NCBI GenBank assembly: GCA_016783505.1
Contig: JADHWK010000007.1
Span: 1-64,000 of the forward strand
Origin: Candidatus Zhuqueibacterota bacterium
GTDB lineage: Bacteria > BS750m-G25
DNA: 64,000 nt
Reading direction: 5' to 3'
Numbering within the stretch: the stretch's first letter is position 1; each line of letters opens with the position of its first letter. A program made the position numbers and the translations under genes. This document shows, in pieces, positions 9,830-43,615 of the stretch. The notes beneath the pieces were generated by a model. It worked only from the letters and a program-made list of their open reading frames with translations. It ran no database searches and had not been told where the DNA came from.

Positions 9830-9842
9830 TTCGGAAATAATT

Positions 9843-23525: not shown

Positions 23526-23547
23526 CCCCGAAGGGGGTAAGTTCACT

Positions 23548-24312: not shown

Positions 24313-24313
24313 A

Positions 24314-25597: not shown

Positions 25598-25599
25598 AA

Positions 25600-26100: not shown

Positions 26101-26173
26101 TTTAGGTTTCAAGATAAAAGAAGTTTTTGCCTATGGATTTTTAAAACTGGTAGCGGAGATTGGAATGTGGTAA
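26090..26173 (+). pseudogene. Remnant of an ArsP/SO_0444-type permease
   Basis: MEPNLGFKIKEVFAYGFLKLVAEIGMW* resembles PFKLKEVFRYGFVELAEEIGKW in the intact permease at 40713-41921. Confidence 0.6.
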
Positions 26174-26183
26174 TGGGTGGGTA

Positions 26184-26564: not shown

Positions 26565-26591
26565 CCTATTCAGGGAAAGGAGGTGAGCAAA

Positions 26592-26759
26592 ATGCCAAAG
26601 GTCAAGGAGGTCGGAGAGGTTTACAGATGTTACATCTGTGGCAATGTAGTGGAGGTAAAAGAGGCCGGCGGCGGCGAACTGGTCTGCTGCGGCCAGCCCC
26701 GTAGGGTGTGAAGCTACTCACGGGGCCAGCCGATGAACCTGGTTGAAAAACCAAGTTAA
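26592..26759 (+). CDS. Desulforedoxin-like Fe(Cys)4 protein interrupted by a 33-nt insertion (now stops at TGA 26709-26711)
   Basis: [36 protein letters not shown]-[RRV*SYSRGQP]-MNLVEKPS*; strong SD; absent from ORF track. Confidence 0.85.
26691..26731. mobile_element. 25-nt hairpin insertion flanked by 8-bp direct repeat GGCCAGCC
   Basis: GGCCAGCC-CCGTAGGGTGTGAAGCTACTCACGG-GGCCAGCC; stem GCCCCGT/ACGGGGC. Confidence 0.75.
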
Positions 26760-27003
26760 TAAAAAGGAAAAATCCAATTAGGGTGAAAAGGAGAGGACGA
26801 GCTAACTGCCCATTAGTTCCGCCATTGATTGAAGGATGAGGGGGAATATCTATACACGTTCAGAAAATTCAAAGAAGAAGAATAACATCACCGGTGCTTT
26901 ACAAAAGTTTTAAGACTTTCCAGTAGGAGCTAATATCCGTACAACCCCCGGTGATGTCTCTTTGTTTAATATATTAGAAAAAACATAAAAAGGAGGCCTC
27001 AAA

Positions 27004-27369
27004 ATGGCGAGATTTGGAGAGGTTATCAACCCTCCGGAGAAGGAGGGCAAGGAGAAGCACGTCCCGGTCATCGAGGCCCCGGCTTCAGTGAAGGCTGGGG
27101 AAAGTTTCCAGGTCACCGTCACGGTGGGAAAGGACGTTCCCCATCCCAATACCGTCGAGCACCACATCAAGTGGATTCAGGTGTTTGTGGCATTGGAGGG
27201 CCGTCCCTATAATCCCGTTCACGTGACCACTTTTGATGTAGGTCCCACTTTCGGTGATCCGAAGGTGACTTTCCCGATGAAGTTGGAGAAAAAGGCCACT
27301 CTTTTTGCATTGGAGTACTGCAACATCCACGGCGTGTGGGAGAACTCGGTCCCTGTCGGGGTTGAATGA
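27004..27369 (+). CDS. Class II superoxide reductase (neelaredoxin)
   Basis: EKHVP, HPNTVEHHIKWI, CNIHG. Confidence 0.93.
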   Translation: MARFGEVINPPEKEGKEKHVPVIEAPASVKAGESFQVTVTVGKDVPHPNTVEHHIKWIQVFVALEGRPYNPVHVTTFDVGPTFGDPKVTFPMKLEKKATLFALEYCNIHGVWENSVPVGVE

Positions 27370-27378
27370 CGGAATGAT

Positions 27379-27404
27379 GGGGGGCGACCTGGCGTCGCCC
27401 CCTA
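27379..27404. repeat. REP-like hairpin
   Basis: GGGGCGAC-CTGGC-GTCGCCCC directly after the SOR stop; could also act as a terminator. Confidence 0.55.
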
Positions 27405-27525
27405 TTGCATTGATTTAATCAAGCCGACAATAAAATGGCATAGGGTGAGGAAAATCAATGGTGGCAACGAACATCCAGAGAAAACCCCCCTTAACAATCG
27501 CATTTCATTCCCAGGGAGTTTAAAG

Positions 27526-29196: not shown

Positions 29197-30052
29197 AATA
29201 GAGGCTTATCGCAGCGATGCGGAAAACCAGTGGTGTCCCGGATGCCCGAATTTCGGAATACTGGCTGCGCTGAAAAACGCTTTGGTGAACCTGGGCAAAA
29301 AACCTGAGGAGGTATGTCTGGTCTCCGGCATCGGTCAGGCGGCCAAAATGCCGCATTATTTAAAATGCAATTTCTTCAATGGACTTCATGGTAGAACCCT
29401 CCCCGTTGCCGTGGCCATCAATGTTGTGAACCCGGAGCTGATCACTATCGTGGTGACCGGAGATGGCGATTGCTACGGTGAGGGCGGAAATCATTTCCTA
29501 CATAACATCCGCAGGAACCCTAATATTACCCTTATCGTACACAATAATCAGATATATGGGCTTACCAAAGGGCAGGCTTCTCCCACTACTGAGGCCGAAG
29601 ATAAAACGAGGCTTCAGTTCGAAGGGGTCGAACTCGAACCATTACAGCCGCTGGCGATAGCACTTCTGCACGGATGTTCGTTCGTTGCCAGGGGATATGC
29701 CGGCGATTTTAAACATCTGAGTAATCTGTTAGTCGAAGCAATAAGTTTTAAAGGCTTCTCCTACGTGGACGTGATCCAGCCCTGTATTAGCTGGGGAACC
29801 CATTCCGTCAGTTGGTATAGGGAGAAAATTTACAAACTGCCGCAGGAGTACAATCCCCGCGATAAAGAGGAAGCGCTGAAAAAGTCAGCAGAATGGGGCG
29901 ACAGAATTCCCATTGGCATAATCTACAGGGACGACAAACCACATAGGCTTTTCGGCGATTATTTCCGAAAGAACATCTTTGATGGCAAGCTAACTGAGCT
30001 CGGGTGTCCCCCGCAACGATTAATAGCTGAAATGATAGAAAGGTATAGATAA
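29189..30052 (+). CDS. 2-oxoacid:ferredoxin oxidoreductase beta subunit
   Basis: WCPGC, HGR, GDGD, NN.IYGLTKGQ.SPT. Confidence 0.93.
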   Translation: MVKIEAYRSDAENQWCPGCPNFGILAALKNALVNLGKKPEEVCLVSGIGQAAKMPHYLKCNFFNGLHGRTLPVAVAINVVNPELITIVVTGDGDCYGEGGNHFLHNIRRNPNITLIVHNNQIYGLTKGQASPTTEAEDKTRLQFEGVELEPLQPLAIALLHGCSFVARGYAGDFKHLSNLLVEAISFKGFSYVDVIQPCISWGTHSVSWYREKIYKLPQEYNPRDKEEALKKSAEWGDRIPIGIIYRDDKPHRLFGDYFRKNIFDGKLTELGCPPQRLIAEMIERYR

Positions 30053-30167
30053 AAACGATTTGTAACATTTCAGCCACCCCCGAGGGGTCGGGGTCACTTG
30101 GCAACAAGGCACAAAGAAAAACAAATATGATAATTCTAAAATTTGGTTCTATGTCAATTCTCCCGCT

Positions 30168-30216
30168 AAATCCCCCCCAGCCCCCCTTTATTAAAGGGGG
30201 GAATAAGGGGGGATTT
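30168..30216. repeat. C-rich/G-rich intergenic hairpin
   Basis: AAATCCCCCC..CCCCCCTTTA TTAAAGGGGGG..AAGGGGGGATTT; right half recurs near 46473-46505. Confidence 0.7.
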
Positions 30217-30345
30217 CAAATAGGGACTTTTAAAAAGGCCAAAGAATTCAGAAATAGAATTTAGTGGTTAACTGTTACAAAGATTTTAAGAAGGGCAATA
30301 AATAAGTCGTTCAATCAAAGTGAATTCTTTAGAAAGGAGGAAAAG

Positions 30346-30879
30346 ATGGAGCCCACTCGGATACCTGAAAGAAAAGACCTTGTGACCTTCAAGGGAGAGC
30401 CCATAATCCTGCTGGGACAGGGGTTGAAAGTCGGCGATAAAGCGCCTGAGTTTCATGTCGTGGATAACGATATGAATCCAGTCAAACTTAGCGATTTTAG
30501 TGGGAAAGTGGTGCTGATCAGCGTCACCCCCTCGGTTGACACACCGGTGTGCAACCTCCAGGCGAGCCGGTTCAACCAATTGGCGACCAAGGTTTCCGAA
30601 GATGTGGTTATACTCAACGTCAGCATGGACCTGCCGTTCGCCCTGGGGAGGTGGTGCGCCGCTACGGGATCGGAACAGATTAAAACCCTGAGCGACTATC
30701 AGGAAAGGGATTTCGGGCTCAAATACGGTCTGCTTGTTAAAGAACTGAAACTTCTGGCTCGTTCAGTCTGGCTTATAGATAGTAAGGGAGTCATCCGATA
30801 CATAGAACTTGTCCCGGAAATGACCCATGAACCGGACTATGATAAAGCCTTGGAGGCGTTAAAACAGGTGATTTCCTGA
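30346..30879 (+). CDS. tpx: Thiol peroxidase
   Basis: PSVDTPVC, SMDLPFA..RWC, LLARS, EPDYD. Confidence 0.95.
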   Translation: MEPTRIPERKDLVTFKGEPIILLGQGLKVGDKAPEFHVVDNDMNPVKLSDFSGKVVLISVTPSVDTPVCNLQASRFNQLATKVSEDVVILNVSMDLPFALGRWCAATGSEQIKTLSDYQERDFGLKYGLLVKELKLLARSVWLIDSKGVIRYIELVPEMTHEPDYDKALEALKQVIS

Positions 30880-30930
30880 GAAATAGAGGAGGACCTTAAT
30901 GATAAAACCATTTCAAACAAGGGAGAAAAA

Positions 30931-31488
30931 ATGTCAACTGCTATTATTGACTTGCTTCAGAAAAGAAAGGCCTCTCGTGCCATTGAGAGCAAGGGATTGA
31001 GTGATGTGATTATTGATAAACTGATGAATGCCGCTCAACTTTCGGCATCCTGTTATAACAACCAACCGTGGCGATTTTTATTTCTAACCGAGGAATCGGC
31101 TCTGGAAAAGGGCAGAAAAGCACTGGCCGCTGGTAATAGCTGGGCTAAAAAGGCGCCTTTGCTGATCGCCGGGTTTTCAAAACCAGATTTGGATTGCCAG
31201 ATACCGGATGAACGAAATTATTACTTATTCGATCTGGGTATGGCCACACAGTTAATATTATTACAGGCCACTGAACTAAATCTGGTAGCCCGGCCGATGG
31301 CGGGTTTTTCCCCAAAAGTAATAAAAAAAGAATTCAACATTCCACCCAACTACGAAGTATATGTAATGATAGCCGTTGGCTATGAAGGAAAAATAGAAGA
31401 ACTCGATGAGAGATTACAGACCCTATCCAGAGCACCGAGAGAACGGAATCCTTTATCAATGAGTTTTTTCTTCAATAAGTTTGATTAA
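30931..31488 (+). CDS. Nitroreductase family protein
   Basis: R.ASR, S.S.YNNQPWRF, DLG.A, PMAGF, AVGY. Confidence 0.9.
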   Translation: MSTAIIDLLQKRKASRAIESKGLSDVIIDKLMNAAQLSASCYNNQPWRFLFLTEESALEKGRKALAAGNSWAKKAPLLIAGFSKPDLDCQIPDERNYYLFDLGMATQLILLQATELNLVARPMAGFSPKVIKKEFNIPPNYEVYVMIAVGYEGKIEELDERLQTLSRAPRERNPLSMSFFFNKFD

Positions 31489-31726
31489 TCCTGATCTTAA
31501 AGAGAAGTGGTCTATTTCAATAGCGTGTTTGTGGTTTTTCTTTCCTGGCAGGCTTACCCAAATCCCGTCCAGAAACTTCGGGACCGGGACCTCGCACTTT
31601 CAAAACCACTAAAGTTCTCGGTGGATGTTGTCCTACGGACGGGTTATCCGCCGGAGTATCCTTCAAATTGGCGTCGGGGAAGACAACTTCCCTGCCTAGC
31701 TTCTGATAGCTTAAGGAGGAAGACCG

Positions 31727-32287
31727 ATGGAGAGATCTGATCAGCCGACATACGATAAAAAGGGGTATGATGCCTCAATCATAAGGCCCCAGATGCGGAT
31801 TGAGGATTTCCAGATGAGGGGGCGGGGGATGTCTGCGGAAAGATTAAAGGCTATCAAAAAAGGACTGCTCACTTTGCATACCCTGGAGACGATGGCTGCT
31901 AATATCTATAAGTTTCAAATAAGGAAGAGGGTGGATGAACACAATCGCCAGTTAATCACTGCTATGTGTAATGAGATGACCCATCTCCAGGACTTCCAGG
32001 TCAAACTCTTTGAATACGGCTGGATGCCGGGAAAATTCAGATGGGCCTATTGGATGGTGGGTTTTACCTTTGGGTTCTTTTCACGGCTGCGGGGCACAAA
32101 GGCCATTCTCAAACTGGGCATCTGGGTGGAGACCAAAGCCGTTTACCACTACGATGATCTCCTCCGGACAATAGACTGGGACGAGGACACCCGCAAGGTT
32201 ATCGAAAAGAATCAATCTGATGAACAAGGGCATATCAACCGGTGGAAAAACCTTCTCCAATCAGTAGAAGCGAAAGACAAACTTTGA
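31727..32287 (+). CDS. Ferritin-like di-iron protein (Coq7/DMQ hydroxylase-like)
   Basis: E..A..IY, NEMTH, VE..AV.HY, DEQGH. Confidence 0.75.
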   Translation: MERSDQPTYDKKGYDASIIRPQMRIEDFQMRGRGMSAERLKAIKKGLLTLHTLETMAANIYKFQIRKRVDEHNRQLITAMCNEMTHLQDFQVKLFEYGWMPGKFRWAYWMVGFTFGFFSRLRGTKAILKLGIWVETKAVYHYDDLLRTIDWDEDTRKVIEKNQSDEQGHINRWKNLLQSVEAKDKL

Positions 32288-32320
32288 AGCGAAAGAAAAT
32301 TAAAAAAATAAAAAAAATAC

Positions 32321-32383
32321 TTGACTTTGTAATAAATTTATATTATATTTAATACAAATTTAAAATCGTTACAAATTTGTAAC
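32321..32383 (+). promoter_or_regulatory. Sigma70 promoter plus palindromic operator (putative PerR/Fur box)
   Basis: TTGACT-17 nt-TATATT; perfect palindrome GTTACAAATTTGTAAC at 32368-32383. Confidence 0.7.
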
Positions 32384-32391
32384 TAATCAAA

Positions 32392-32802
32392 ATGGAAGAA
32401 TATAAAAAGATTCTTATCGCTAAGGGGATAAAACCGACGTTTCAGAGAATAAAGATCTTGGAATATCTTAGTCGGAATAGAACGCATCCCACAGTTGATA
32501 TGATTTATACTGCCCTATTTAAAAAGGTTCCTACTTTATCAAAAACTACCGTGTATAACACATTGGATATATTAAGGGAAAATGGATTGGTGGATGTGCT
32601 GACGATTACTGAATCAGAAATGAGATACGAGTACTGCACTGAACCGCACCATCATTTTTTATGCAGAAGATGCGGACGCATCATTGATCTGGATGTAAAA
32701 TGCCCTTATTTAGAAAAAATGAAATTCGGTGAACATAAACTTGAACAAATCCACGGCTATTTTAAAGGCATTTGTAAAGATTGTTTAGAGGAGGCACAAT
32801 GA
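32392..32802 (+). CDS. perR: Fur-family regulator, probably PerR
   Basis: T.QR, HPT, TVYNTL, HHHFLC..C, C..C; heads a rubrerythrin cluster. Confidence 0.8.
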   Translation: MEEYKKILIAKGIKPTFQRIKILEYLSRNRTHPTVDMIYTALFKKVPTLSKTTVYNTLDILRENGLVDVLTITESEMRYEYCTEPHHHFLCRRCGRIIDLDVKCPYLEKMKFGEHKLEQIHGYFKGICKDCLEEAQ

Positions 32803-33293
32803 GCATTTTCTTTAATGCCGACGAGATCTTCGAAATGGCGGAACAGATCGAGAGAAACGGGGCTAGGTTCTACCGTCGGGCGGCGGAAGGGGCCCCAGAT
32901 GCCCAGACCCGTGCGGTGTTATTGGAACTCGCTGACATGGAAGATGAACACGAAAAAGTCTTCGCTGCCATGAGGGCGGAGCTTTCGAAGCAGCAGTGGG
33001 GATCGGATGTGTTCGATCCCGACGGCCAGGTATCGTTGTACCTTAAGGCCATGGCGGACGGACAGGTTTTCGACCTTAAGGCAGACCCTTCCAAAGGCCT
33101 TACGGGAAAAGAGTCATTAGAAGATATTATCAGGAAGGCTATCGGGTTGGAAAAGGACTCCATCGTTTTCTACATGGGTATACAGGAGATGGTTCCGGAG
33201 GCGCTGGGGAAGGACAGGATCAACGCCATCATCAAGGAAGAGATGAGTCACATTACCGTCTTAACTGAGAAACTGGCGGCCTTTAAACAATAG
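32799..33293 (+). CDS. Rubrerythrin-like ferritin family protein
   Basis: A..IE.NG..FY, MEDEH, EKDS..FY, EEMSH. Confidence 0.88.
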   Translation: MSIFFNADEIFEMAEQIERNGARFYRRAAEGAPDAQTRAVLLELADMEDEHEKVFAAMRAELSKQQWGSDVFDPDGQVSLYLKAMADGQVFDLKADPSKGLTGKESLEDIIRKAIGLEKDSIVFYMGIQEMVPEALGKDRINAIIKEEMSHITVLTEKLAAFKQ

Positions 33294-33314
33294 TTGGGGT
33301 AGTTTAGAAATCAA

Positions 33315-34208
33315 ATGAACAATTATTTTACAATCATTCTCACCATATTGGCTACTGTTACATCTATATCTGCTGGTGAACTACTTGTGGATTCTTTGAA
33401 ATATGACGAATTATTAGCAATAGCTGAAAACACCACATTACCACAAAGTTTTAAAGCAATTCTTCGGTTACGTGAGGTTGGGGATGAAAGAGCCGTCCCA
33501 ATATTAAAACAGATTCTAATCGAACACACTAACTCAACACGAATCCACAGATTTGGTGCGGCACAGGCATTATTTTGCATTGGCACTGATAAAGCACATC
33601 AAATTCTTCGGGAACACCTATTGGATGCAGAATATCCGGTTGATTTAAGTATTATGTATGGCTTTCACTGGAGAATGGAAGAATCAAAACGTGATACTTT
33701 TATAGCTCAACATCATCTTCAAAATTTATCAACGGACGTATCTTTAAAATTGGAAGTTAAAAATGGTATTTTTAACAGTAAAATTTTCACACTCATTCTT
33801 AGAAATGATTCTGAGAAGACATTGAGACTATATAAACCAAAGGTATATTTAGGTGCCTATCTTATGTTCCGATCCTCTTTAGGTCATTTTATCGAGCATA
33901 TAAAAGCTATCTTATATGATGAACGTGGAAGAACTCCAGAGGGAACTTATCCAAAAATAGCCCCAGGTAAAGACTTAAAACTAAGTTGTAGTGCAAGACC
34001 TCAAACAAATAGGAAAATATATAAATATCCAGAGCCAGTATCCCTAGTGTTAGATTTTGGAGATACTATTCATCTCCTTGGAAACTCTGGTAAATTTAAA
34101 GTGTATGCCATATATTCGTATAGGAAAAGACCAAATGAGCTGTATCCAAATATTTGGACTGGAAGAGTTGTGTCAAACCCCGTTGAAATCGAAATACTCC
34201 TAGAATAA
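33315..34208 (+). CDS. AT-rich secreted protein with HEAT-like repeats and a beta-rich C-domain
   Basis: Signal peptide, GDERAVPIL..AAQAL..IG HEAT pattern, VVSNPVEIEI end; compositionally foreign. Confidence 0.65.
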   Translation: MNNYFTIILTILATVTSISAGELLVDSLKYDELLAIAENTTLPQSFKAILRLREVGDERAVPILKQILIEHTNSTRIHRFGAAQALFCIGTDKAHQILREHLLDAEYPVDLSIMYGFHWRMEESKRDTFIAQHHLQNLSTDVSLKLEVKNGIFNSKIFTLILRNDSEKTLRLYKPKVYLGAYLMFRSSLGHFIEHIKAILYDERGRTPEGTYPKIAPGKDLKLSCSARPQTNRKIYKYPEPVSLVLDFGDTIHLLGNSGKFKVYAIYSYRKRPNELYPNIWTGRVVSNPVEIEILLE

Positions 34209-34336
34209 AGTCTATACTGATAATGTGAATATATAACAAAAATCAAATTAGGGGTGGTAAAGTTATCTACTGTATTTCATAATTTTATTAAAGAATAAAG
34301 GCAAAAGATGAACAAAAATTAGAAAGGAGGCAAGAA

Positions 34337-34912
34337 ATGGAAAACTTGAAGGGCACAAGGACAGAGAAAAACCTGCTTACCGCTTTTGCCGGTGAGTCGC
34401 AGGCGCGCAACCGCTACACCTACTTTGCCAGTCAGGCGAGGAAGGATGGATTCATGCAGATTGCGGAAATCTTCGAGGAGACGGCCAATCAGGAGAAGGA
34501 GCACGCCAAAAGGCTGTTCAAGCTGCTTGAGGGGGGTGAAGTGGAGATTCAAGCCGCATTCCCAGCCGGGGTAATTGCCACCACCGCCGAAAACCTCAAG
34601 GCCGCTGCTGGTGGGGAGCACTATGAGTGGGAAGAGATGTATCCCTCGTTTGCCAGGGTTGCCCGGGAGGAGGGTTTCGAGGACATCGCCAAGGTATTTG
34701 AATCCATTGCCGTGGCCGAGAAGCAACACGAGAAGCGTTACCTCGGTCTTCTGGATAACATCGAGTCGGGAACGGTGTTCAAAAAGGACCGTGTGGTCCT
34801 GTGGCGCTGCCGAAACTGCGGTTATCTACACCAGGGTACAGAAGCTCCTGAAATCTGCCCAGCCTGCGCTCACACCCAGGCTCACTTCGAATTGCTATGT
34901 GAGAACTGGTAA
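34337..34912 (+). CDS. rbr: Rubrerythrin
   Basis: AFAGESQARNRY, EKEH, EKQH, CRNCG, CPAC. Confidence 0.96.
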   Translation: MENLKGTRTEKNLLTAFAGESQARNRYTYFASQARKDGFMQIAEIFEETANQEKEHAKRLFKLLEGGEVEIQAAFPAGVIATTAENLKAAAGGEHYEWEEMYPSFARVAREEGFEDIAKVFESIAVAEKQHEKRYLGLLDNIESGTVFKKDRVVLWRCRNCGYLHQGTEAPEICPACAHTQAHFELLCENW

Positions 34913-34998
34913 AATCAAATAAAAAAACTGGTTGCTGCGTCCCTAACCGGTTAGGGGCCTAAGGAGTTGAAGTAAAAATAATTGAAGGGGAGGAAGAA

Positions 34999-35454
34999 AT
35001 GAAGAGATTTAATTCCGTTGAGGAGATTTTAAATTACTCTATCGCTAAGGAGCAGGAATCCTCCCAATTTTATAATGATTTGGCAGGCCGGGTTGAGAGA
35101 CCCGAGATGAGCCGAGTCTTTGAGGATTTCGCTCAGGAGGAGATGGGGCATAAGGCCAAGTTGCTGTCCATAAAGCAGGGGAAGCTCTTGATGCCCGCAG
35201 AGCGTAAAATACTGGATCTTAAAATAGGCGACTACCTGGTGGGTGTAGAGCCGGGGCCTGATCTGGACTATCAGCAGGTACTTGTCCTGGCGATGAAGAA
35301 GGAGAAGGAGTCCTTCAGGCTGTATACCGACCTTGCCGCCGCTACCGACGACAGCAATCTGGGCACAACCCTGCAATCACTGGCCCAGGAGGAAGCAAAG
35401 CACAAGCTGCGGTTTGAAATCGAGTACGACGACCATATTCTGGCCCAAGATTAA
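34999..35454 (+). CDS. Rubrerythrin-like ferritin family protein
   Basis: I.KE....FY, EEMGH, AMKKE, EEAKH. Confidence 0.88.
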   Translation: MKRFNSVEEILNYSIAKEQESSQFYNDLAGRVERPEMSRVFEDFAQEEMGHKAKLLSIKQGKLLMPAERKILDLKIGDYLVGVEPGPDLDYQQVLVLAMKKEKESFRLYTDLAAATDDSNLGTTLQSLAQEEAKHKLRFEIEYDDHILAQD

Positions 35455-35732
35455 GATAGCTGGGATAAAAATTCCCAGGGCGGAGGACAGCCCAAAACCG
35501 ATATAAAAAGTGGCACTTCTTCGTTCAAGCGATTAAAAATCGCCGGATATTAGTTTTTGAAAAGTTTACCGTGTATCAACCGAGCATTAACGGCAAGCCA
35601 CTGTTTATGTCAGAATCATCACTGAAAATTTCCAGCAACAGATATGACTGAAATGTGGGGATTGCTCAATGTGAAGAAACCATTAAAAAGGTATACCAAA
35701 ATTTTATTTTACAAACAAAAGGAGGCGGGGAA

Positions 35733-36107
35733 ATGACGGAAAGATTCCAGGTGTACAAATGTGAAGTGTGTGGGAATATTGTTGAGATGTTGCACCCCGG
35801 AGCAGGGGAATTGGTCTGTTGCGGCCAGCCCATGAAACTTTTTGTGGAGAACACCACCGATGCTGTCAGGGAGAAACATGTCCCCGTATTAGAGAAGACC
35901 GAAACAGGCGTCAAGGTAAAGGTTGGGAGTGTGGCCCATCCCATGGAGGATAAGCACTACATTGAATGGATTGAGATCCTCACCGGCGATAGGGTCTACC
36001 GTAAGTTTTTAAGACCTGGGGACGCGCCAGAGGCTGCCTTCGAGATCGAATTGTACCGGGTTACCGCCCGCGCGTACTGCAACCTGCACGGGCTGTGGAA
36101 GGGATAA
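35733..36107 (+). CDS. dfx: Desulfoferrodoxin (class I superoxide reductase)
   Basis: [22 protein letters not shown]...HYIEWI, CNLHG. Confidence 0.95.
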
Positions 36108-36234
36108 TTGCCTTGTGTAAAAAAGTTTGCTGGATTAAACCAGTAAGTACGAGAGTTTTAGAAGGCCAACTCAGCAGGGAAGAATTAATCGGGGCAGAGT
36201 GCTAAGAGAGAGTTGAACTGAATAGGTAGGCAAC

Positions 36235-36999
36235 ATGCAGTCGAATATAATCATAGCCTTATTACTAACTGCCGGAGCCGGTCTGGCAACGACTATCGGG
36301 AGCTTGATCGGCCTGGCAGTACGTAAGCCTGGACCACGATTCATGGGGTTCACATTGGGCTTCTCGGCCGGTGTGATGGTCCTGGTCTCCTTTGTCGAAC
36401 TGCTCCAGGGGAGCATCGAGTCCATCGGATTTTTATCCGCACACGGGGGGTTCTTCCTAGGCATGGTGAGCTACTTTCTCATAGATTATCTTATCCCCCA
36501 CGACTACATTGATCAGCACGACCATCCCAGGGGCGAATCTGGGGAGGCCCTGATGAAGACCGGAATGCTGGTGGCTTTGGGTATTGGGATTCACAACTTT
36601 CCCGAGGGGATGGCGACTTTTGCCGGTGCGCTCAAGGACGTGCGACTTGGGATTGCCATCGCGGTGGCTATTGCTATCCATAACGTTCCCGAAGGGCTGG
36701 CCGTTTCGGCCCCGGTCTATGCTGCCACCGGCAGCCGCAGGAAAGCCTTCCTCTGGTCGTTTCTTTCGGGGGTGAGTGAGCCCGTAGGGGCAGCGTTGGC
36801 CGCTATCGTGCTGCTGCCCTTCCTGACGGCGACCGTGTTGGGCTGGTTGCTTGCCGCCGTTGCCGGTATCATGGTTGCCATCTCGATTGACGAACTTGCC
36901 CCTGCTGCTAAATCGTTCGGGAGCGAGCACACGCCGATCATGGGGGCAATAGCAGGTATGATCGTCATGGCGCTCAGTCTTTGGATATTGAAAGGGTAA
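36235..36999 (+). CDS. zupT: ZIP-family metal transporter
   Basis: GFSAGVM, HNFPEG, HNVPEG, SEP.GA, DEL.P. Confidence 0.9.
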   Translation: MQSNIIIALLLTAGAGLATTIGSLIGLAVRKPGPRFMGFTLGFSAGVMVLVSFVELLQGSIESIGFLSAHGGFFLGMVSYFLIDYLIPHDYIDQHDHPRGESGEALMKTGMLVALGIGIHNFPEGMATFAGALKDVRLGIAIAVAIAIHNVPEGLAVSAPVYAATGSRRKAFLWSFLSGVSEPVGAALAAIVLLPFLTATVLGWLLAAVAGIMVAISIDELAPAAKSFGSEHTPIMGAIAGMIVMALSLWILKG

Positions 37000-37085: not shown

Positions 37086-37304
37086 ATGAAAGAAAGAGTG
37101 GAAGAAGTACTGGACAAAATACGACCCGCTTTGCAGGCGGACGGCGGCGATGTGGCTTTAGTCTCCGTTGAAGAGGGGGTTGTTAAACTGAGGCTGCAGG
37201 GGGCCTGCTTTGGCTGTCCCATGGCGCAGATTACCTTAAAACAGGGGATCGAACGAAAGTTAAAAGAAATGATCCCTGAAGTAAAAGAGGTAATGGCAGT
37301 GTGA
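37086..37304 (+). CDS. NifU C-terminal-like (Nfu) protein
   Basis: [23 protein letters not shown]. Confidence 0.93.
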
Positions 37305-37561
37305 TGTTTGTCCCCAAGATTGCCGCCCGTTGAGGGTGATTACCTTTATTCAAAATAAACAAATAAATTTTCAAGAAAAAGAGAATCCGGAACTTGGAGT
37401 GATGGAGGGGTGAAGTATTAGGGATTTAATGTAATGTACCTTTTCCGCATTACCCCAGTACTCTACAACTTCCTCGAACTCTTATAATTTTGTTGGCGCA
37501 ACTTTATTCAAATTAGTCAGATAAAACAGATGTATTGTTTAGGATAATTCATGAGAAAATT

Positions 37562-38725
37562 ATGGAAGGAATAATAAATTTTGACCACGCTGCTGCCACC
37601 AGGCCTTTACATGATGTTGCAGAAAGCATGAAGCCGTACATGCTGGATGTGTTCGGAAATCCTTCCAGTATGCACAGCGAAGGACAGAGGGTAAAAGAAG
37701 CAATTGACGAAGCCAGAGAGCAGGTGGCCAGCCTAATTAACGCTTCGCCTGAGGAAATTGTATTCACCGCTTCAGGAAGTGAGTCTAACAACTTTACCCT
37801 GAAAGGAGTTGCCTTTGCTAACCGAAAGAAGGGGGATCATATTGTCGTCTCGGCAATCGAGCATTTTTCTGTGCTGCAAGCGGCAAAATCGCTGGAAAAG
37901 CTGGGCTATCAGGTCTCCCAAATTCCTGTGGATAAAGATGGGCTTGTGGACCCTGATGATGTGAAAAAGGCCATTACCGATAAAACCATTCTCGTTTCTA
38001 TCATGTATGCCAATCATGAGGTTGGTACCATCGAACCCATTGAAGAGATTGCCAAGATTGTCAAAAAAAGGGGTATCCTTTTCCATTCAGATGGGGTCCA
38101 GACGGTGGGAACAATTCCAGTGGATGTCAAAAAATTGAATGTTGATTTTTTAAGTTTTGCTGCCCAAACATTTTATGGACCCAAAGGGGTTGCCGGGCTT
38201 TATATTAAAAAGGGGGCGAGAATTGACCCATTGATTGTTGGTGGGATTCAAGAAGGTGGGCGACGCGCGGGTACCGAAAACGTGATGGGCATCGTGGGCA
38301 TGGGCACAGCAGCCGAGCTTGCTTCAAAAGAAGTGGCCAAAAGAATTGCCCACGTGCAGGTTTTACGTGATCTATTGATTCAGTCAATAGAGGAAAAGAT
38401 TGATCATGTATGTCTACACGGGCATCGTGAATTGCGATTACCGAATAATGTTAATTTTGGATTCGAATATATTGAAGGTGAGTCCATCCTTTTACTTTTG
38501 GGAATGGAAAATATTTTAGCTTCGAGCGGATCGGCATGTACTTCGAAAGCGCTGAAGGCATCACACGTGCTATCCGCCATAGGGGTGTCACCTGAGATTG
38601 CCAATGGTTCGATACTATTTACATTGGGCATTGATAATACGGAAGCCGATGTTAATCTACTGTCGGAAAAATTACCCCGGATAGTTGATAGACTTCGGGC
38701 CATGTCGCCCTTGTATCAGAAATAG
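37562..38725 (+). CDS. iscS: IscS/NifS-like protein lacking the PLP Schiff-base lysine
   Basis: GNPSS.H, E.NN, IEH.SV, N.EVGT, SSGSAC; canonical SAHK reads AAQT. Confidence 0.88.
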   Translation: MEGIINFDHAAATRPLHDVAESMKPYMLDVFGNPSSMHSEGQRVKEAIDEAREQVASLINASPEEIVFTASGSESNNFTLKGVAFANRKKGDHIVVSAIEHFSVLQAAKSLEKLGYQVSQIPVDKDGLVDPDDVKKAITDKTILVSIMYANHEVGTIEPIEEIAKIVKKRGILFHSDGVQTVGTIPVDVKKLNVDFLSFAAQTFYGPKGVAGLYIKKGARIDPLIVGGIQEGGRRAGTENVMGIVGMGTAAELASKEVAKRIAHVQVLRDLLIQSIEEKIDHVCLHGHRELRLPNNVNFGFEYIEGESILLLLGMENILASSGSACTSKALKASHVLSAIGVSPEIANGSILFTLGIDNTEADVNLLSEKLPRIVDRLRAMSPLYQK

Positions 38726-38733
38726 GAAATAGA

Positions 38734-38770
38734 ACACGGATTTAGCGGATTGAACGGATTATCACGGATT
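38734..38770 (+). repeat. Four ~9-nt nnnCGGATT tandem units
   Basis: ACACGGATT TAGCGGATT GAACGGATT ATCACGGATT. Confidence 0.8.
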
Positions 38771-38792
38771 AATATATGAAAGGATAAAAAAC

Positions 38793-39218
38793 ATGGATAG
38801 TCCATATAGTGAAACGGTCATGGATCATTTCATGAATCCCAGAAATGTGGGGGAAATTAAAGATGCCGATGGGGTGGGGACTATAGGGAATCCGGCCTGC
38901 GGCGATATTATGCAGATGTTCATCAAAGTCGAAAATGACGTGATTGTAGATGCAAAATTTAAGACTTTTGGCTGTGGTGCAGCAATTGCCTCCAGCAGTA
39001 TGGCTACAGAATTGATAAAAGGTAAATCCATTAATGAGGTTTTGAAGGTAACCAATAAGGCTGTTACCAAGGCTCTGGGTGGCCTTCCTAAAGTAAAAAG
39101 GCATTGCTCGGTTCTAGCGGAGCAAGCACTTCAAAGCGCTCTTAATGACTATTATAAGAAAGAAGGGATTCCTTCTCCTGTTAAAATGAAATCAGAAGAG
39201 GAAATACTTGCAGAGTAA
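38793..39218 (+). CDS. iscU: Fe-S scaffold IscU/NifU-N
   Basis: DHF.NPRN.G, NPACGD, FKTFGCGAAIA, LP..K.HCS. Confidence 0.95.
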   Translation: MDSPYSETVMDHFMNPRNVGEIKDADGVGTIGNPACGDIMQMFIKVENDVIVDAKFKTFGCGAAIASSSMATELIKGKSINEVLKVTNKAVTKALGGLPKVKRHCSVLAEQALQSALNDYYKKEGIPSPVKMKSEEEILAE

Positions 39219-39231
39219 AGGAGGAGAAATC

Positions 39232-39714
39232 ATGAATGAAAAAAATATGGTTACCATTGTCGTCTTTAGCGGTGATTTAGATAAAACGCTAGCCAGTTTT
39301 GTGATTGCCACCGGGGCGGCAGCATCCGGGATGAAAGTAAATATGTTCTTTACCTTCTGGGGATTAAAACTCATTCAGCGGGAAAAAGCGAGGCCGAAAG
39401 AATTGGATTGGATGAGAAGGATGTTTAGTTTTATGGTGAAAGCAGGACCTGAAAAACGCCCGCTATCGAAAATGAATATGTTTGGTATAGGGCCGATGAT
39501 GATGAAAAAATTGATGAAAAAATCCAATGTTCCCTCACTTAAGGAGATGCTGGCAACAGCCAAGAGCCTCGGCGTCAAATTAACAGCCTGTTCCATGACG
39601 ATGGGTGTTATGGGTGTAACCAAAGAAACCCTGATACCGGAGGTCAATAATGTTGCCGGGGTTGCTTCCTTTTTAGCCGATGCGAAGGATAGTCAAATTA
39701 CTCTCTTCATTTGA
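39232..39714 (+). CDS. DsrE2/DrsH-like sulfur-transfer protein
   Basis: FSGDLDK, FFTFWG, ACSMTM.VMG, AGVA.FL, TLFI. Confidence 0.88.
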   Translation: MNEKNMVTIVVFSGDLDKTLASFVIATGAAASGMKVNMFFTFWGLKLIQREKARPKELDWMRRMFSFMVKAGPEKRPLSKMNMFGIGPMMMKKLMKKSNVPSLKEMLATAKSLGVKLTACSMTMGVMGVTKETLIPEVNNVAGVASFLADAKDSQITLFI

Positions 39715-39931
39715 GAGAATGATAAAATGCTAAAATCGTATTTGAAAACAATATATGAAATTGCCAGGTTTGAATATCTAGAGCGGGAAAATACAACGAA
39801 TAAATTAGAACGCTATCGTCCTATCTTTCCGAACTTGAGACCTGTTCAGGCTTGAAAAGGAGCTAGAGTAAAGAAAACCAAATATACCACCAAACTTTTT
39901 ACGGCTCTCTCTGAAGCCTTTAAGAGGATAA

Positions 39932-40006
39932 GTCAGACATTCTTGTCTGACAATAATAAGAGACCAATTATGAGAACATCTAGGGGAACAGGCAAGAATG
40001 CCTGTT
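39932..40006. repeat. Inverted pair of REP-like hairpins
   Basis: GTCAGACATTCTTGTCTGAC and AACAGGCAAGAATGCCTGTT share the CATTCTTG loop in opposite orientation. Confidence 0.7.
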
Positions 40007-40136
40007 ATACCGATACCCGATACCGGTGTCAATTTCAATATTATTAAACCAAAGAAAACCATAGAATTTGCAAACGGGTAAGACTTTTATAAACAGAATA
40101 TTCTTTAAAAGGAAATTTTAGTACGGGATTCAAATT

Positions 40137-40367
40137 ATGGAAGCCAATGTAACTTTAGATTGCTTGGGACTTTATTGCCCTATGCCTATTATTAAGACTG
40201 CTGAAAAGATAAAAGAACTTACAATAGGCGAAATTCTTGAAGTAATCTCCGATGATGTAGGCATTGTTGAGGACATGCCCAACTGGTGTAAAATGACCGG
40301 TCAGGAATTTTTATGTATCGAAGAAGAGGGCGATGAGTTCAGGGCTTATGTTAAGAAAATTGTGTAA
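40137..40367 (+). CDS. tusA: TusA/SirA-family sulfur carrier
   Basis: LD.LGLYCPMP, DD......D...WC. Confidence 0.9.
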   Translation: MEANVTLDCLGLYCPMPIIKTAEKIKELTIGEILEVISDDVGIVEDMPNWCKMTGQEFLCIEEEGDEFRAYVKKIV

Positions 40368-40712: not shown

Positions 40713-41921
40713 ATGTTTATTCTGCTTTACCAAATCCTGCAGGAATCTGTAGACTTGTGGCTGGCCATTTCCCCTTATCTGCTTTTGGGGATGTTTATCG
40801 CCGGGGTTTTGCATGCCTTTCTGGGTGAGAACTTCGTGGGACGGCATCTGGGGGACGGCGGCTTTAAATCCATCCTGAAAGCAACCCTGTTCGGCATACC
40901 CCTGCCCCTCTGCTCCTGTGGCGTTATCCCCGTAGCCGCCTCTCTAAAGAAAGAAGGGGCTAGCAAAAGCGCGGTGCTTTCCTTCTTAGTCTCCACCCCC
41001 ACCACTGGAGTAGATTCTATTCTGGCCACCTATTCCTTGATGGGACCCCTGTTCGCCATATTTCGACCGCTGGCTGCCTTCGTCAGCGGGATTACCATCG
41101 GGGTTTTCAACCGGCTCTACAATCGGGAGGAAGAGAAGAAAGCAAACACGCATTCCCATTCCCCACTACCTTCGCCTTTTAAGCTAAAGGAGGTTTTCCG
41201 CTATGGATTTGTAGAACTTGCAGAAGAGATCGGGAAATGGCTGTTGGTGGGGGTGGTCGCCGGGGGTATCCTGACGGTGGCTATTCCGGAGGGTTTGTTA
41301 ACCCGCTATCTTCCCTATCCCGCTCTTCAATTCTTCATCATGCTGGCTCTAGCGATTCCACTTTACGTCTGCGCTACCGGTTCTATTCCTATCGCTGCTG
41401 CCCTGATCGGTAAGGGTTTTTCCCCGGGGGCGGCGCTGGTTTTTCTAATCGCCGGCCCGGCTACCAATACGGTAACCCTATCATTTGTTTACTCCAAGCT
41501 GGGCCGACGGGCATTTTATATTTATCTGTCCATCATTATCCTAGTCTCTCTATTGATGGGTTGGATTTTTAACCTTCTGTGGCGGGGTTTGGGCGGTGAT
41601 GTGGGGTTGATATCGCCCCATGGACAGGTTTTATCCCCGGGCTTTACCATAGCTGCGGGGATAGTGCTCTTGCTTCTTATCATCAGAGGATTTTTTCCAA
41701 CAAGAAAGGGGAGCCAGGGGATGAAATATCAACTTCAGGTTTCTGATATGACCTGTAAGCATTGCAAGATGACTATTGAGAACGGACTGCGGAAACTTCC
41801 CGGGGTGGATCAGGTAGTGGTAGATCTGGAGCATAAAACGGTAGGAGTAGATGGCGAGGTTAGTCTGGAGGATATTAAAAAGGCGATACGGGAGGTGGGA
41901 TATACCCCGGAGGGGGAATAG
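40713..41921 (+). CDS. SO_0444/ArsP-type metal permease with C-terminal HMA domain
   Basis: PLCSCGVIP, STPTTGVDS, YVCATGS.P, GPATN, MTCKHC. Confidence 0.9.
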   Translation: MFILLYQILQESVDLWLAISPYLLLGMFIAGVLHAFLGENFVGRHLGDGGFKSILKATLFGIPLPLCSCGVIPVAASLKKEGASKSAVLSFLVSTPTTGVDSILATYSLMGPLFAIFRPLAAFVSGITIGVFNRLYNREEEKKANTHSHSPLPSPFKLKEVFRYGFVELAEEIGKWLLVGVVAGGILTVAIPEGLLTRYLPYPALQFFIMLALAIPLYVCATGSIPIAAALIGKGFSPGAALVFLIAGPATNTVTLSFVYSKLGRRAFYIYLSIIILVSLLMGWIFNLLWRGLGGDVGLISPHGQVLSPGFTIAAGIVLLLLIIRGFFPTRKGSQGMKYQLQVSDMTCKHCKMTIENGLRKLPGVDQVVVDLEHKTVGVDGEVSLEDIKKAIREVGYTPEGE

Positions 41922-42240
41922 GAATAATGAAACTGTCTCACAGTTTAGGTTAAAAAAAAAAACAAAAAATAGGTGATTTTAAGACAAAAAATTCGTATTT
42001 TTATTCAATGATTAGGGTAATTGAAAAATGACCGAAATAAACGATAATAACTGTGTCACTTTTGAAGCAATCGAAATGGCTGATGAGGAGATACTTCATC
42101 GCTGGTTTTTAACCGATGAATTTTATCATCTTAGCAATAATGCTGGTATGTGGTTCTGGGGGGATTAATTTATCATAAAGGTTTGGTGAAGTACGTTGTT
42201 TTCAAGTAAAGTGGGTATGGGGTAAAGAGCAACCGATTAG

Positions 42241-42298
42241 ATTCCCTCCCCCTCAATGGGGGAGGGTTTCGGTCAGGCGCCCGACTGAAGGGAGGGGA
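42241..42298. repeat. CCCTCCCC...GGGGAGGG hairpin element interrupted by the 20-nt palindrome
   Basis: ATTCCCTCCCCCTC..GGGGGAGGGTT[TCGGTCAGGCGCCCGACTGA]AGGGAGGGG. Confidence 0.75.
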
Positions 42299-42391
42299 AC
42301 TAATAAGATTATCGAAATGATAGGATAGAACGGGATTGACTGAATTATACAATTTATCAATAATCAATTTCAAAGTGAAAGGAGGTAAGAA

Positions 42392-43615
42392 ATGAGTAAA
42401 CAGTCGCTTGAAAGAGGTGTGGGGAAAAAGGTAGCCCTGAAAGGGATGATAAAGAGGCTGCATGAGGGGGAGAGTCCCGAGAAGATCAAAGAGGAATTTA
42501 AAGAATTGATAAAAGATACCACGCCCACTGAAATATCCCAGATTGAGGAAGAGCTTATTAAAGAGGGCATGCCAAGAGAAGAGATACACAGGCTCTGTGA
42601 TGTTCACCTCGCTGTATTTAAAGAGTCGGTTGAAAAGGAGAAGACTTTAGCCCCGCCTGGACACCCTATCCATATTCTTATGGAAGAGCACAAAATCCTT
42701 CTCCAATTTGCTGATGAATTGAAAAATATTACAGCGGACATTAAGGGGGCAGGAGGTTTTGATGCTGTTGGTGAACAGATGAATCACATAAAGCACATCG
42801 CCGAGCATCTTAAGGAATCGGAGAGCCACTATGTACGGGAGGAAAACGTGCTTTTCCCTTATCTTGAGAAACACGGGATCACCCAACCCCCGGCCATGAT
42901 GTGGATGGAACACGACAAGATCAGGGGGATAAAGAAGGAAATCTACAAGCTGGTTGATGCCCACAAGGACATGGGTTTTCAAGATTTTGCAGAACAACTG
43001 GGGGAAATGGCAATATCCTTGGCTGATATGCTGTCAAATCATTTTTTTAAGGAAAATAACATTCTCTTTCCAACCGCTTTAAAGGTTATATCGGAAACTG
43101 AATGGAAGGATGTAAGACATCAATTTGACGAACTCGGCTATTGCTGTTTCACCCCCGAGCAGGCCAAGGTTGCGGTTGAGAAGGCAGAGGCACCTACTTC
43201 AGAACCGGTGACAGAGGGTGTCGTTTCTTTTGAAACCGGTACCCTGTCAAAAGTGGAGATCGAAGCCGTACTTAACACTTTGCCCGTAGATATTTCCTTT
43301 GTGGATAAAGAAGACACGGTTCGTTATTTCAGCCAGACCAAAGAGAGGATCTTCCCCAGAGCAAAGGCGGTGATCGGCCGAAAGGTTCAGCAGTGTCATC
43401 CCCAAAAGAGCATCCATGTCGTCAATCAAATTCTTGACGATTTCAAGCATGGCCGCCGGGAGGTTGCTGGATTCTGGCTGCAATTAAAGGGGCGGTTCAT
43501 TCACATTCGCTACTTTCCGGTTCGTGATAAAAACGGCCAATATCTTGGATGTTTGGAGGTAACTCAGGACATCACCGATATAAGAAAGCTTGAAGGCGAG
43601 AAAAGATTATTATGA
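42392..43615 (+). CDS. DUF438 / hemerythrin / PAS-domain protein
   Basis: LCDVH, GHP...L..EH, HY.REE..LFP, EHD, KEN.ILFP, CHP.KS PAS domain. Confidence 0.88.
   Translation: MSKQSLERGVGKKVALKGMIKRLHEGESPEKIKEEFKELIKDTTPTEISQIEEELIKEGMPREEIHRLCDVHLAVFKESVEKEKTLAPPGHPIHILMEEHKILLQFADELKNITADIKGAGGFDAVGEQMNHIKHIAEHLKESESHYVREENVLFPYLEKHGITQPPAMMWMEHDKIRGIKKEIYKLVDAHKDMGFQDFAEQLGEMAISLADMLSNHFFKENNILFPTALKVISETEWKDVRHQFDELGYCCFTPEQAKVAVEKAEAPTSEPVTEGVVSFETGTLSKVEIEAVLNTLPVDISFVDKEDTVRYFSQTKERIFPRAKAVIGRKVQQCHPQKSIHVVNQILDDFKHGRREVAGFWLQLKGRFIHIRYFPVRDKNGQYLGCLEVTQDITDIRKLEGEKRLL

Follow-up and report, generated by a model that had tools for sequence, protein, structure and literature searches.

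A Lys-less IscS encoded beside IscU, a DsrE2-like protein and TusA in candidate division KSB1: a possible PLP-free sulfur acceptor in Fe-S cluster assembly

In textbook Fe-S cluster assembly with IscS, NifS or SufS, sulfur is drawn from cysteine through pyridoxal 5'-phosphate (PLP) chemistry. Here we analyze a gene cassette for an IscS homologue, hereafter IscS*, that has lost the Schiff-base lysine and keeps the persulfide cysteine, and that is encoded together with Nfu, IscU, a DsrE2-like protein and TusA in a stretch of 64,000 nucleotides (the window: positions 1 to 64,000 of contig JADHWK010000007.1, assembly GCA_016783505.1) from a Candidatus Zhuqueibacterota bacterium. Our results indicate that IscS* is probably a non-catalytic, PLP-free paralogue of type I cysteine desulfurases, as judged from its residues, and they tilt the balance towards a mechanism in which the Cys loop of the PLP-free protein takes sulfane sulfur from TusA, with DsrE2, and serves IscU. 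The analysis establishes the loss of the cofactor site, purifying selection on the gene and a gene linkage found with Lys-less forms and not with Lys-bearing ones; TusA binding has the support of a model only, and we infer which way the sulfur flows, what DsrE2 does and where the sulfur originates. That sulfur bypasses cysteine is not established, and active paralogues always coexist with the Lys-less form.

Relative to what is known, the cassette encodes an inactive IscS-IscU pair like that of Archaeoglobus fulgidus, in a separate lineage, joined to known sulfur carriers. As the A. fulgidus pair revealed, even an IscS without activity can assemble a cluster together with IscU; the specific and repeated association of Lys-less IscS with TusA and DsrE2 points to these two carriers as candidate donors of the sulfur. 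This work adds a bacterial lineage apart from the archaeal one, in KSB1, a phylum without cultured model organisms, as well as repeated loss of the Lys with the same partners, a modelled docking site and a CxxxxC signature in the partner TusA. It also adds two cautions, namely the coexistence of active paralogues and the occurrence of some IscS*-IscU pairs without carriers.

The genome bin from which the window comes, as contig C27, measures 2.5 Mb and is 60% complete, and the nearest named homologues belong to candidate division KSB1/Zhuqueibacterota. A first-pass annotation, made from the sequence alone, had placed iscS in a cluster with iscU, nfu, dsrE2 and tusA, and family matches bear this out: all five genes lie on the + strand and span 37086-40367. 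Four of them, iscS*, iscU, dsrE2 and tusA, adjoin on one strand, with a 422-base gap before tusA. The start of iscS* was chosen from its homologues; a longer frame opening with TTG would begin at 37535. The features of the cassette are as follows.

37086-37304, + strand: nfu, 72 aa, a single NifU C-terminal domain (PF01106, 109 bits)
37562-38725, + strand: iscS*, 387 aa (PF00266, 264 bits; TIGR03402, 507.2 bits)
38168-38170, + strand: position of the Schiff-base Lys, codon ACA for Thr203, equivalent to E. coli K206 (alignment to 9wep)
38537-38539, + strand: Cys326 of the SSGSAC loop, codon TGT, equivalent to the persulfide-carrying Cys328 of E. coli IscS
38615-38617, + strand: Leu352, codon CTA, at the position of a conserved active-site Arg, equivalent to E. 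coli R354
38793-39218, + strand: iscU, 141 aa (TIGR03419, 200.9 bits against a cut-off of 187.9; PF01592, 169 bits)
39232-39714, + strand: dsrE2-like gene of the DrsE_2 family, 160 aa (PF13686, 177 bits)
40137-40367, + strand: tusA, 76 aa (PF01206, 88 bits)

Cofactor site and cysteine loop of IscS*

In the alignment with 9wep, a solved desulfurase, SFSAHKMYGPKG of that protein sits over SFAAQTFYGPKG of IscS*, and the Schiff-base Lys is therefore replaced by Thr203. This confirms what had first been read from the ACA codon, which is also unchanged in the contigs of three runs from other studies (X5, X7 and X9, covering 38033-38331); assembly error is thereby ruled out as the source of the loss. 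The class V aminotransferase fold is complete, with PF00266 covering positions 1-371 of 371 and matches to solved structures reaching E 1e-119. The TIGR03402 score of 507.2 falls under the curated cut-off of 530.75, a shortfall that does not discriminate, given that the Lys-bearing paralogues of the same genome also fall below it (495 and 496 bits).

The changes extend beyond the Lys. In the pocket of IscS*, T203, Q202, H152 and L352 replace E. coli K206, H205, N155 and R354, with Gln202 lying at the position of H205, just before the Lys site; the N155 and H205 equivalences are those that we take from E. coli IscS numbering. Retained are H101, D177 and Q180 (E. coli H104, D180 and Q183), together with S200 and T238. 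Papers are cited here by PMC number, and what is drawn from them is limited to the passages covered. The conserved active-site residues of E. coli IscS are H104, D180, Q183, K206, C328 and R354; the K206A, H104Q and Q183E variants are without desulfurase activity, and some PLP is still held by K206A (PMC9978102).

Among the best 120 homologues, the Lys is missing in all 120 and the His in 118, which rules out a chance substitution at the Lys site, and the cysteine of the SSGSAC loop, described as intact in the first-pass annotation, is kept in 120 of 120. The two positions that normally read HK are hypervariable in this set (NQ, NT, QT, PT, QN, AP and others) around an invariant Cys, and this is the pattern of sites that no longer matter. 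To extend the comparison to the whole pocket, 141 Lys-bearing and 48 Lys-less rows were compiled from the best 150 representatives of 50%-identity clusters plus the locus proteins, and the columns conserved in at least 85% of the Lys-bearing set were taken as reference, with the residue numbers of the 387-aa protein. Residue 203 (K206) is Lys in 141 of 141 Lys-bearing rows by definition and in 0% of the Lys-less rows. Residue 352 (R354) is Arg in 99% of the 141 Lys-bearing and 10% of the 48 Lys-less rows, and residue 202 (H205), a His in 93% of Lys-bearing rows, is kept in 25% of the Lys-less ones. The conserved residue is likewise kept in 25% of Lys-less rows at position 180 (Q183), 26% at 12, 31% at 152 (N155), 35% at 286, 44% at 321, 46% at 11 and 59% at 6; all other reference columns were retained in the Lys-less set. 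By contrast, D177, C326 and the C-terminal L378/R379 (LR..SP) are kept in 98-100% of Lys-less rows and H101 in 91%, the persulfide Cys being present in all 48 Lys-less rows and in 99% of the Lys-bearing ones. On this comparison of columns, the decay of the Lys-less forms is confined to the pocket.

The first-pass annotation had envisaged that normal desulfurase activity might persist through the downstream lysine of the GPK motif. This lysine is rejected as a substitute base because the Lys-bearing rows share it, at 94%, and because 10 of the 120 nearest Lys-less homologues do without it.

The nonsynonymous divergence (dN) of iscS* from five relatives is 0.135-0.199, synonymous divergence (dS) being saturated, so that dN alone is usable. 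The KSB1-type IscS* clade retains 70-85% identity; among 80 sequences, 25 columns do not vary at all and about 120 hardly do. Substitution patterns thus place iscS* under purifying selection.

Phylogeny and gene linkage of Lys-less forms

The association of Lys-less iscS with dsrE2 and tusA was examined in loci from three sources. Species genomes contributed 80 loci, with flanks of 6 kb, and sample genomes another 29, with flanks of 1.5 kb that were afterwards lengthened for six loci; the remaining 80 were metagenome loci retrieved with an alignment of clade B (defined below). TusA and DsrE2 were detected with phmmer, using the window proteins as queries against six-frame open reading frames (ORFs) at E <=1e-4, and in the metagenome set also with profiles of the cassette. 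From 190 candidates, 186 had an IscS frame of at least 330 aa and 185 a readable residue at the Lys site. TusA and/or DsrE2 adjoin the gene in these loci as follows.

Lys-less loci: 12 linked to TusA/DsrE2, 10 unlinked
Lys-bearing loci: 0 linked to TusA/DsrE2, 163 unlinked

The co-occurrence on which the first-pass annotation had hinged its proposal is thus found, and it spans three lineages: the main clade (the window, L048, L050, L053, L018, L020, L021 and L025), clade B (L144 and L203) and a third lineage (L102 and L110). The unlinked Lys-less loci comprise L049 and L051, both cut by a contig end, L047 and L138, a Desulfomonile/Syntrophaceae-type subclade (L052, L054, L215 and L137) and a pair in which the Lys is replaced by Leu (L211 and L219). 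Applied naively to the first 105 loci, Fisher's test yields p = 7e-10. The linkage of TusA/DsrE2 is conserved and specific to Lys-less forms.

The best 150 representatives include 22 that lack the Lys. In a FastTree phylogeny of 189 rows, the Lys/Lys-less label requires at least five changes, and the window IscS* falls in a main clade of 41 rows, 40 of them Lys-less, with a Shimodaira-Hasegawa-like support of 97; the clade includes KSB1, Dehalococcoidia and Desulfomonile/Syntrophaceae-type sequences. P0122, which branches at the base of this clade, is a Lys-bearing sequence (AHK) in which the Q183 equivalent has been lost and the Cys loop is degenerate (ASASTC); to go by its residues, it may represent an intermediate or an inactive form of a different kind. 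Clade B is that of A. fulgidus IscS2 (4EB5), which matches P0179 at 431 bits and reads SSNDIYGPKG at the motif, with the Lys replaced by Asp. L102 and L110, the third lineage, have a Fraserbacteria sequence with the Lys as their sister, and a fourth lineage, with Lys replaced by Leu or Met (L211, L219 and P0165), is sister to the Lys-bearing P0177.

Joining the main clade, clade B and L102/L110 costs 148.6 log-likelihood units and is rejected by the approximately unbiased (AU) test (p-AU 0.0001; 59-row IQ-TREE, model LG+G4), in which the group was chosen after the tree was seen. In these sequence trees, the Lys has been lost several times, a single origin being rejected for three lineages, and the window IscS* belongs to a lineage separate from A. 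fulgidus IscS2. Its own scores are higher with the Lys-bearing 9wep (403 bits) than with 4EB5 (378 bits, E 5e-112).

The analogy with A. fulgidus IscS drawn by the first-pass annotation therefore stands as to architecture and not as to descent. The A. fulgidus IscS2-IscU pair (PDB 4EB5, 4EB7 and 4HVK; variant 4R5F) resembles that of the window in lacking the Lys, keeping the Cys loop and having its gene beside iscU; it differs in belonging to clade B, which the AU test keeps apart from the main clade of the window protein. A. fulgidus IscS2 is reported to lack desulfurase activity and to contribute, through its Cys, a ligand to the [2Fe-2S] cluster that IscU carries (cited in PMC7585200 and PMC13066941). 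The passages covered discuss no sulfur-carrier partner for this pair; its metagenomic clade-mates L144 and L203 have tusA-dsrE2 upstream.

The genes of the cassette are tightly packed in relatives, and their order varies among lineages: iscS*-iscU-dsrE2-tusA in the window, and tusA-dsrE2-iscS*-iscU in the L102/L110 and L144/L203 types. Many sequence clusters of KSB1-type IscS*, TusA and DsrE2 agree in the length of their longest contig, a hint that they may come from shared contigs, which was kept out of the linkage count. A comparable set of genes occurs in Methanosarcina acetivorans, where IscS1 is without the essential lysine and iscS1/iscU1 are described as clustered with four genes of unknown function (PMC7585200); in its supplement, isc1 comprises IscU1 (MA0807), IscS1 (MA0808), a DrsE superfamily protein (MA0809) and a SirA-like protein (MA0810), and IscS1 is reported to have formed inclusion bodies (PMC7585200). 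Both systems combine a Lys-less IscS, IscU, a DrsE-family gene and a TusA/SirA-like gene. The archaeal IscU1 is a 24-kDa form, in contrast to the plain 141-aa IscU of the window, and the cassette type drawn for isc1, with the order tusA-dsrE2-iscS*-iscU and a long IscU (DUF59 fusion), differs from that of the window. The cassette is in print only as this drawing in the M. acetivorans supplement, and has never been studied. Our literature search, outside which subscription papers fell, found no work joining DsrE2, TusA, IscS and IscU and, within the same bounds, nothing on Lys-less forms with carriers in the work on MisS/MisU; the sole paper found to join DsrE2, TusA and a cysteine desulfurase concerns sulfur oxidation (PMC3397948, in the passages covered).

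A candidate sulfur relay and its alternatives

IscU, which has the NifU_N domain only, carries C36, D38, C61, H104, C105 and the LPKVK motif; in L102 and L110 it is fused as IscU::FeS_assembly_P. Nfu has a CxxC pair, C41 and C44 (CFGC), and is likely, from this motif and its family, to be an Fe-S cluster carrier; its gene is tied loosely to the cassette, sdhA and sdhB intervening before iscS* in L048. The DsrE2-like protein has a single invariant Cys, C120 (motif TAC), and an FFTFWGL motif. The DsrE2 label of the first-pass annotation holds at the level of the family (PF13686, 177 bits against a cut-off of 25) and not at that of the equivalog (NF047629, 72 bits against 210), and the closest solved chain is 3pnx, an uncharacterised structural-genomics protein. 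TusA scores 87.8 bits against a cut-off of 28.6 for PF01206 and does not reach the NCBIfam TusA equivalog (51 against 78 bits). Its motif DCLGLYCPMP contains C9 and the active-site C14, and a further Cys lies at C51; across 56 sequences C14-P15 never varies, and C9 and C51 rarely do. The additional Cys, located five positions ahead of the active one (DCxGxxCP), is present in 10 of 12 cassette TusAs from three lineages (loci including L048, L050, L053, L102, L110, L141, L142, L144 and L203) and in none of seven other TusAs from the same genomes, a comparison that rests on a small sample. The nearest named relatives of IscS* and TusA outside KSB1 come from Dehalococcoidia/Dehalococcoidales; those of DsrE2 do not.

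When an IscS* dimer was folded with TusA, the score reached 0.62, against 0.01 for the best of three controls, a result that supports binding. Among solved complexes, 116 of 157 attain the mark for this verdict, and among mismatched pairs 2 of 215; the runs agreed on at least 84% of contacts, with a partner pLDDT (predicted local distance difference test) of at least 86. The modelled contacts involve residues 86, 218, 220, 222-223, 226-229 and 232-234 of one copy of IscS*, residues 102, 106, 109-110 and 329-332 of the other, the last of these adjoining Cys326, and residues 8, 10-13, 15-16, 18-20, 22, 46, 49-50 and 53-54 of TusA, around Cys14. The model thus supports a TusA that would bind IscS* in the groove next to the Cys loop. 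Within the interface, residue 220 is an Arg in 81% of the Lys-less rows, compared with 23% of the Lys-bearing ones.

E. coli IscS and TusA share these folds, and there too the persulfide Cys loop meets the active-site Cys of TusA (PMC2854127). In the solved complex (3LVJ), the main contacts are on helix alpha-2 (W45, E49, D52 and R55), with R220 and R237 at the edge, and the Cys328 loop is contributed by the second subunit (PMC2854127). The modelled footprint on IscS* approximates the Arg-rich patch beside the loop (E. coli R223/R225/R237), which CyaY, IscX and ThiI use, and differs from the site on helix alpha-2. In E. coli, TusA is loaded by IscS, and IscU attaches close to the C-terminus of IscS (PMC2854127). 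Sulfur made on E. coli IscS from cysteine passes to TusA; for the window we propose a reversed flow, because IscS* would be unable to make sulfur from cysteine.

Under the proposed mechanism, IscS* could neither hold PLP as a Schiff base nor bind substrate in the usual way, and would retain a mobile Cys326 loop, the dimer fold and the IscU-binding C-terminus. It would form a complex with IscU, as A. fulgidus IscS2 does; TusA would dock in the groove by the Cys loop and give sulfane sulfur, as persulfide, to Cys326, with DsrE2 acting as a second carrier in the relay. The Cys loop might then pass sulfur to the IscU cysteines, act as the fourth ligand of the nascent cluster, or both, and Nfu may carry the finished cluster onward. 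As sulfur-oxidiser systems for comparison we take the Rhd-TusA-DsrE2 and DsrEFH-DsrC relays of Allochromatium vinosum; relays of this kind serve dissimilatory oxidation and end at DsrC/DsrAB, unlike the carriers of the window, which adjoin IscS* and IscU. TusA and DsrE-family proteins of sulfur oxidisers pass sulfane sulfur, using one active Cys each (PMC3397948).

Several observations weigh against this proposal. The score of the fold is model-based, and its self-made alignments and its design of a dimer plus partner are unlike the calibration set; the fold may, moreover, recall the solved E. coli complex 3LVJ. The 10 of 22 Lys-less loci without TusA or DsrE2 include one whole subclade and the lineage in which Lys became Leu or Met. 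The 185 loci hold four phylogenetically independent contrasts, of which two or three point in the same direction and none in the opposite one, and a sign test on four contrasts is therefore unable to reach 0.05. Searches with phmmer from window queries, over flanks of only 1.5 kb at 27 of the loci, may also miss divergent or distant carriers near Lys-bearing genes. One genome that is 96% complete (G017) has the IscS*-IscU pair and no TusA or DrsE_2 match genome-wide, so the pair can work without a relay, and another that is 94% complete (G021) has no DrsE_2 match and a TusA-domain match that is only weak. In the window genome, matches to rhodanese (PF00581) and YeeE/YedE (PF04143) were not found, nor was a candidate donor for loading DsrE2 or TusA, in a bin whose 60% completeness means that absence is not implied. 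H101, D177, Q180 and T238 are retained in KSB1-type IscS* and, by analogy with the PLP held by E. coli K206A, these residues may allow IscS* to bind PLP non-covalently. Finally, Lys-bearing paralogues occur in seven of seven genomes with a Lys-less IscS, the window genome included, and sulfur could therefore still derive from cysteine. The DsrE2-TusA relay to IscS/IscU envisaged by the first-pass annotation is thus favoured by the linkage and by the TusA fold, and is not obligatory, as G017 illustrates.

The window genome has a Lys-bearing NifS/IscS on contig C49 (SINAHK, SSGSAC), followed by two IscU-like genes, a Lys-bearing NifS-SelD fusion on contig C74 and a more distant class V enzyme on contig C89; no match to SufB/D (PF01458) was found in the bin, where at 60% completeness absence is not implied. 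The fusion is a 748-aa frame (C74:1531-2610 and downstream, locus L001) that joins a NifS-like desulfurase to SelD (TIGR00476, 386 bits). In a background sample of 60 genomes of the same domain, at least six have a Lys-less IscS, a lower bound given that 29 best matches were examined, and each of these six also has one or two Lys-bearing paralogues. The canonical desulfurase on C49 leaves the cysteine independence suggested by the first-pass annotation unsupported.

With this in mind, the alternative that deserves most weight, which we nonetheless consider unlikely, is that the sulfur still comes from cysteine, passing from a Lys-bearing paralogue to TusA, with DsrE2, and on to IscS*-IscU as a specialised scaffold. 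The paralogues that coexist in all seven genomes carry the SSGSAC loop, E. coli IscS is known to load TusA (PMC2854127), and the cluster tusA encodes the sole TusA match of the 60%-complete bin, as dsrE2 does the sole DrsE_2 match, so any TusA pathway must use it. Such a flow sits poorly with the absence of TusA/DsrE2 beside any of the 163 Lys-bearing loci and with the two IscU-like genes that the Lys-bearing gene of this genome has for itself; methanogens and SMS systems, moreover, are able to use sulfide directly, and non-cysteine routes thus exist (PMC7585200 and PMC12192291, in the passages covered). Less probable again is a role for IscS* as only a structural partner and cluster ligand of IscU, as proposed for A. 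fulgidus IscS2, with free sulfide entering and with TusA and DsrE2, merely co-regulated with the pair, having other jobs such as tRNA thiolation, molybdenum cofactor synthesis, sulfane-sulfur detoxification or a thiol-redox role. The carrier-free pair of G017, the A. fulgidus complex with its IscS Cys as cluster ligand (cited in PMC7585200 and PMC13066941), the label 'peroxiredoxin family protein' that one source gives to DrsE_2 proteins, and a neighbourhood rich in oxidative-stress genes would all fit. Against it, three lineages with separate losses of the Lys all show the linkage, which is seen beside no Lys-bearing gene, the cassette is tightly packed in relatives, the predicted fold sets the Cys14 loop of TusA beside the Cys loop of IscS*, and the interface Arg at residue 220 is specific to Lys-less forms.

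That IscS* retains a weak or altered PLP activity, through non-covalent PLP or another base, appears improbable. The five kept residues, H101, D177, Q180, S200 and T238, and the PLP held by E. coli K206A speak for it, but K206A is inactive (PMC9978102), the His and Arg354 equivalents are gone too, the two positions that normally read HK are hypervariable in close relatives, and the GPK lysine offers no way out, being shared with active enzymes and missing in 10 of 120 Lys-less homologues. The loss of catalytic residues could also be taken as the mark of a functionless, decaying duplicate, an explanation to which we give almost no credence and which is already contradicted by the intact frame, the identity within the clade, the low dN and the conserved synteny.

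We therefore retain the transfer of sulfane sulfur from TusA to IscS* as our working mechanism, and the system is probably a conditional second route beside the normal NifS/IscS-IscU, and not the sole one, because the normal system coexists and the neighbouring genes are those of oxidative stress and metals. A broader claim is bolder, and we advance it tentatively, as something that may well prove wrong: that anaerobes of many phyla have repeatedly made a PLP-free persulfide adaptor out of a desulfurase, each time recruiting DsrE2 and a TusA with a CxxxxC loop, and feed non-cysteine sulfane sulfur (from sulfide, polysulfide or salvaged cluster sulfur) by way of the dead enzyme's Cys loop to IscU. 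Were this true, it would constitute an undescribed sulfur-entry branch of Fe-S biogenesis, explain the sulfur source of A. fulgidus-type IscS-IscU pairs and provide KSB1 with a stress-linked second system beside NifS-NifU.

Gene neighbourhood and local rearrangements

The surroundings of the cassette include the following further features.

36235-36999, + strand: gene for a ZIP-family metal transporter, directly upstream of the cassette (PF02535, 98 bits)
37306-37360, + strand: relic of the 3' end of sdhB/frdB, the Fe-S subunit of succinate dehydrogenase/fumarate reductase (blastn matches to L049, L047 and L048)
39932-40011, no strand: palindrome-bearing short repeat in the dsrE2-tusA gap (blastn copy on contig C52)

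A run of stress and metal genes surrounds the cassette, at 26160-36999 and 40713-43615. Upstream lie genes for superoxide reductase, pyruvate:ferredoxin oxidoreductase (POR), peroxiredoxin and nitroreductase, as well as for a Fur-family regulator, three rubrerythrin-type proteins, desulfoferrodoxin and the ZIP transporter; downstream are an SO_0444-type Cu/Zn efflux protein fused to an HMA domain, a DUF438-hemerythrin-PAS protein and nrfAH. Similar neighbours occur in related loci: desulfoferrodoxin, rubrerythrin and POR in L102; an Rrf2 regulator, ZIP, a P-type ATPase and rubrerythrin in L110; and a DUF255 thioredoxin-like protein in L048, L050 and L053, accompanied by Fur and cytochrome bd in L048 and by ferritin in L053. 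This gene content suggests a stress- or metal-linked role for the cassette. The ZIP gene, which also adjoins the cassette in L110, may provide functional context through metal supply; its membership in the cassette is unsupported.

A four-subunit [NiFe] hydrogenase (Fer4_22 protein, FAD/NAD protein, small and large subunits) is encoded with a HycI-type protease at 21113-26100 and, by subunit make-up, resembles group 3b. The first-pass annotation had suggested that a nearby sulfhydrogenase might be linked to the relay. We reject a link between hydrogenase and cassette: the genes lie 11 kb upstream, behind unrelated ones, and the arrangement is not conserved, the hydrogenase being found in none of the eight related loci scanned with Pfam.

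Two local rearrangements set the window apart from its relatives. The sdhB/frdB gene, of which a relic persists between nfu and iscS*, is intact just upstream of iscS* in L047-L049 and L053; in L048 the order is nfu-sdhA-sdhB-iscS*-iscU-dsrE2-tusA, and the product of L048 5280-5999 carries Fer2_3 and Fer4. With sdhAB intact in relatives and a relic here, sdhAB has therefore been deleted in the window genome. The dsrE2-tusA gap (39715-40136) is non-coding and absent in L048 and L053, where tusA directly follows dsrE2; it is present in contigs of runs X2 and X5. The repeat within it is 77.5% identical over 80 bases to C52:5395-5462, and the insert, which contains two short perfect palindromes, looks like a small repeated intergenic element, judging by these letters. 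A minus-strand frame of 85 aa at 39805-40062 was considered as a gene and taken as non-coding, having no Pfam match and, as sole relative, the C52 copy of the repeat. A promoter scan returned 13 sites where 8.0 were expected, and a terminator scan 5 where 4.0 were expected; no site lies at an informative position, and the Rfam scan returned a chance-level match only (E 0.98).

Elsewhere in the window, positions 1-12000 have a G+C content of 31-39%, compared with 42-54% in the remainder, and hold genes for polysaccharide synthesis (Wzz, a flippase, several glycosyltransferases and DUF6337); this region may have been horizontally acquired. The + strand holds 62 of the 64 frames of a greedy ORF caller, the two frames on the - strand being small and without family match.

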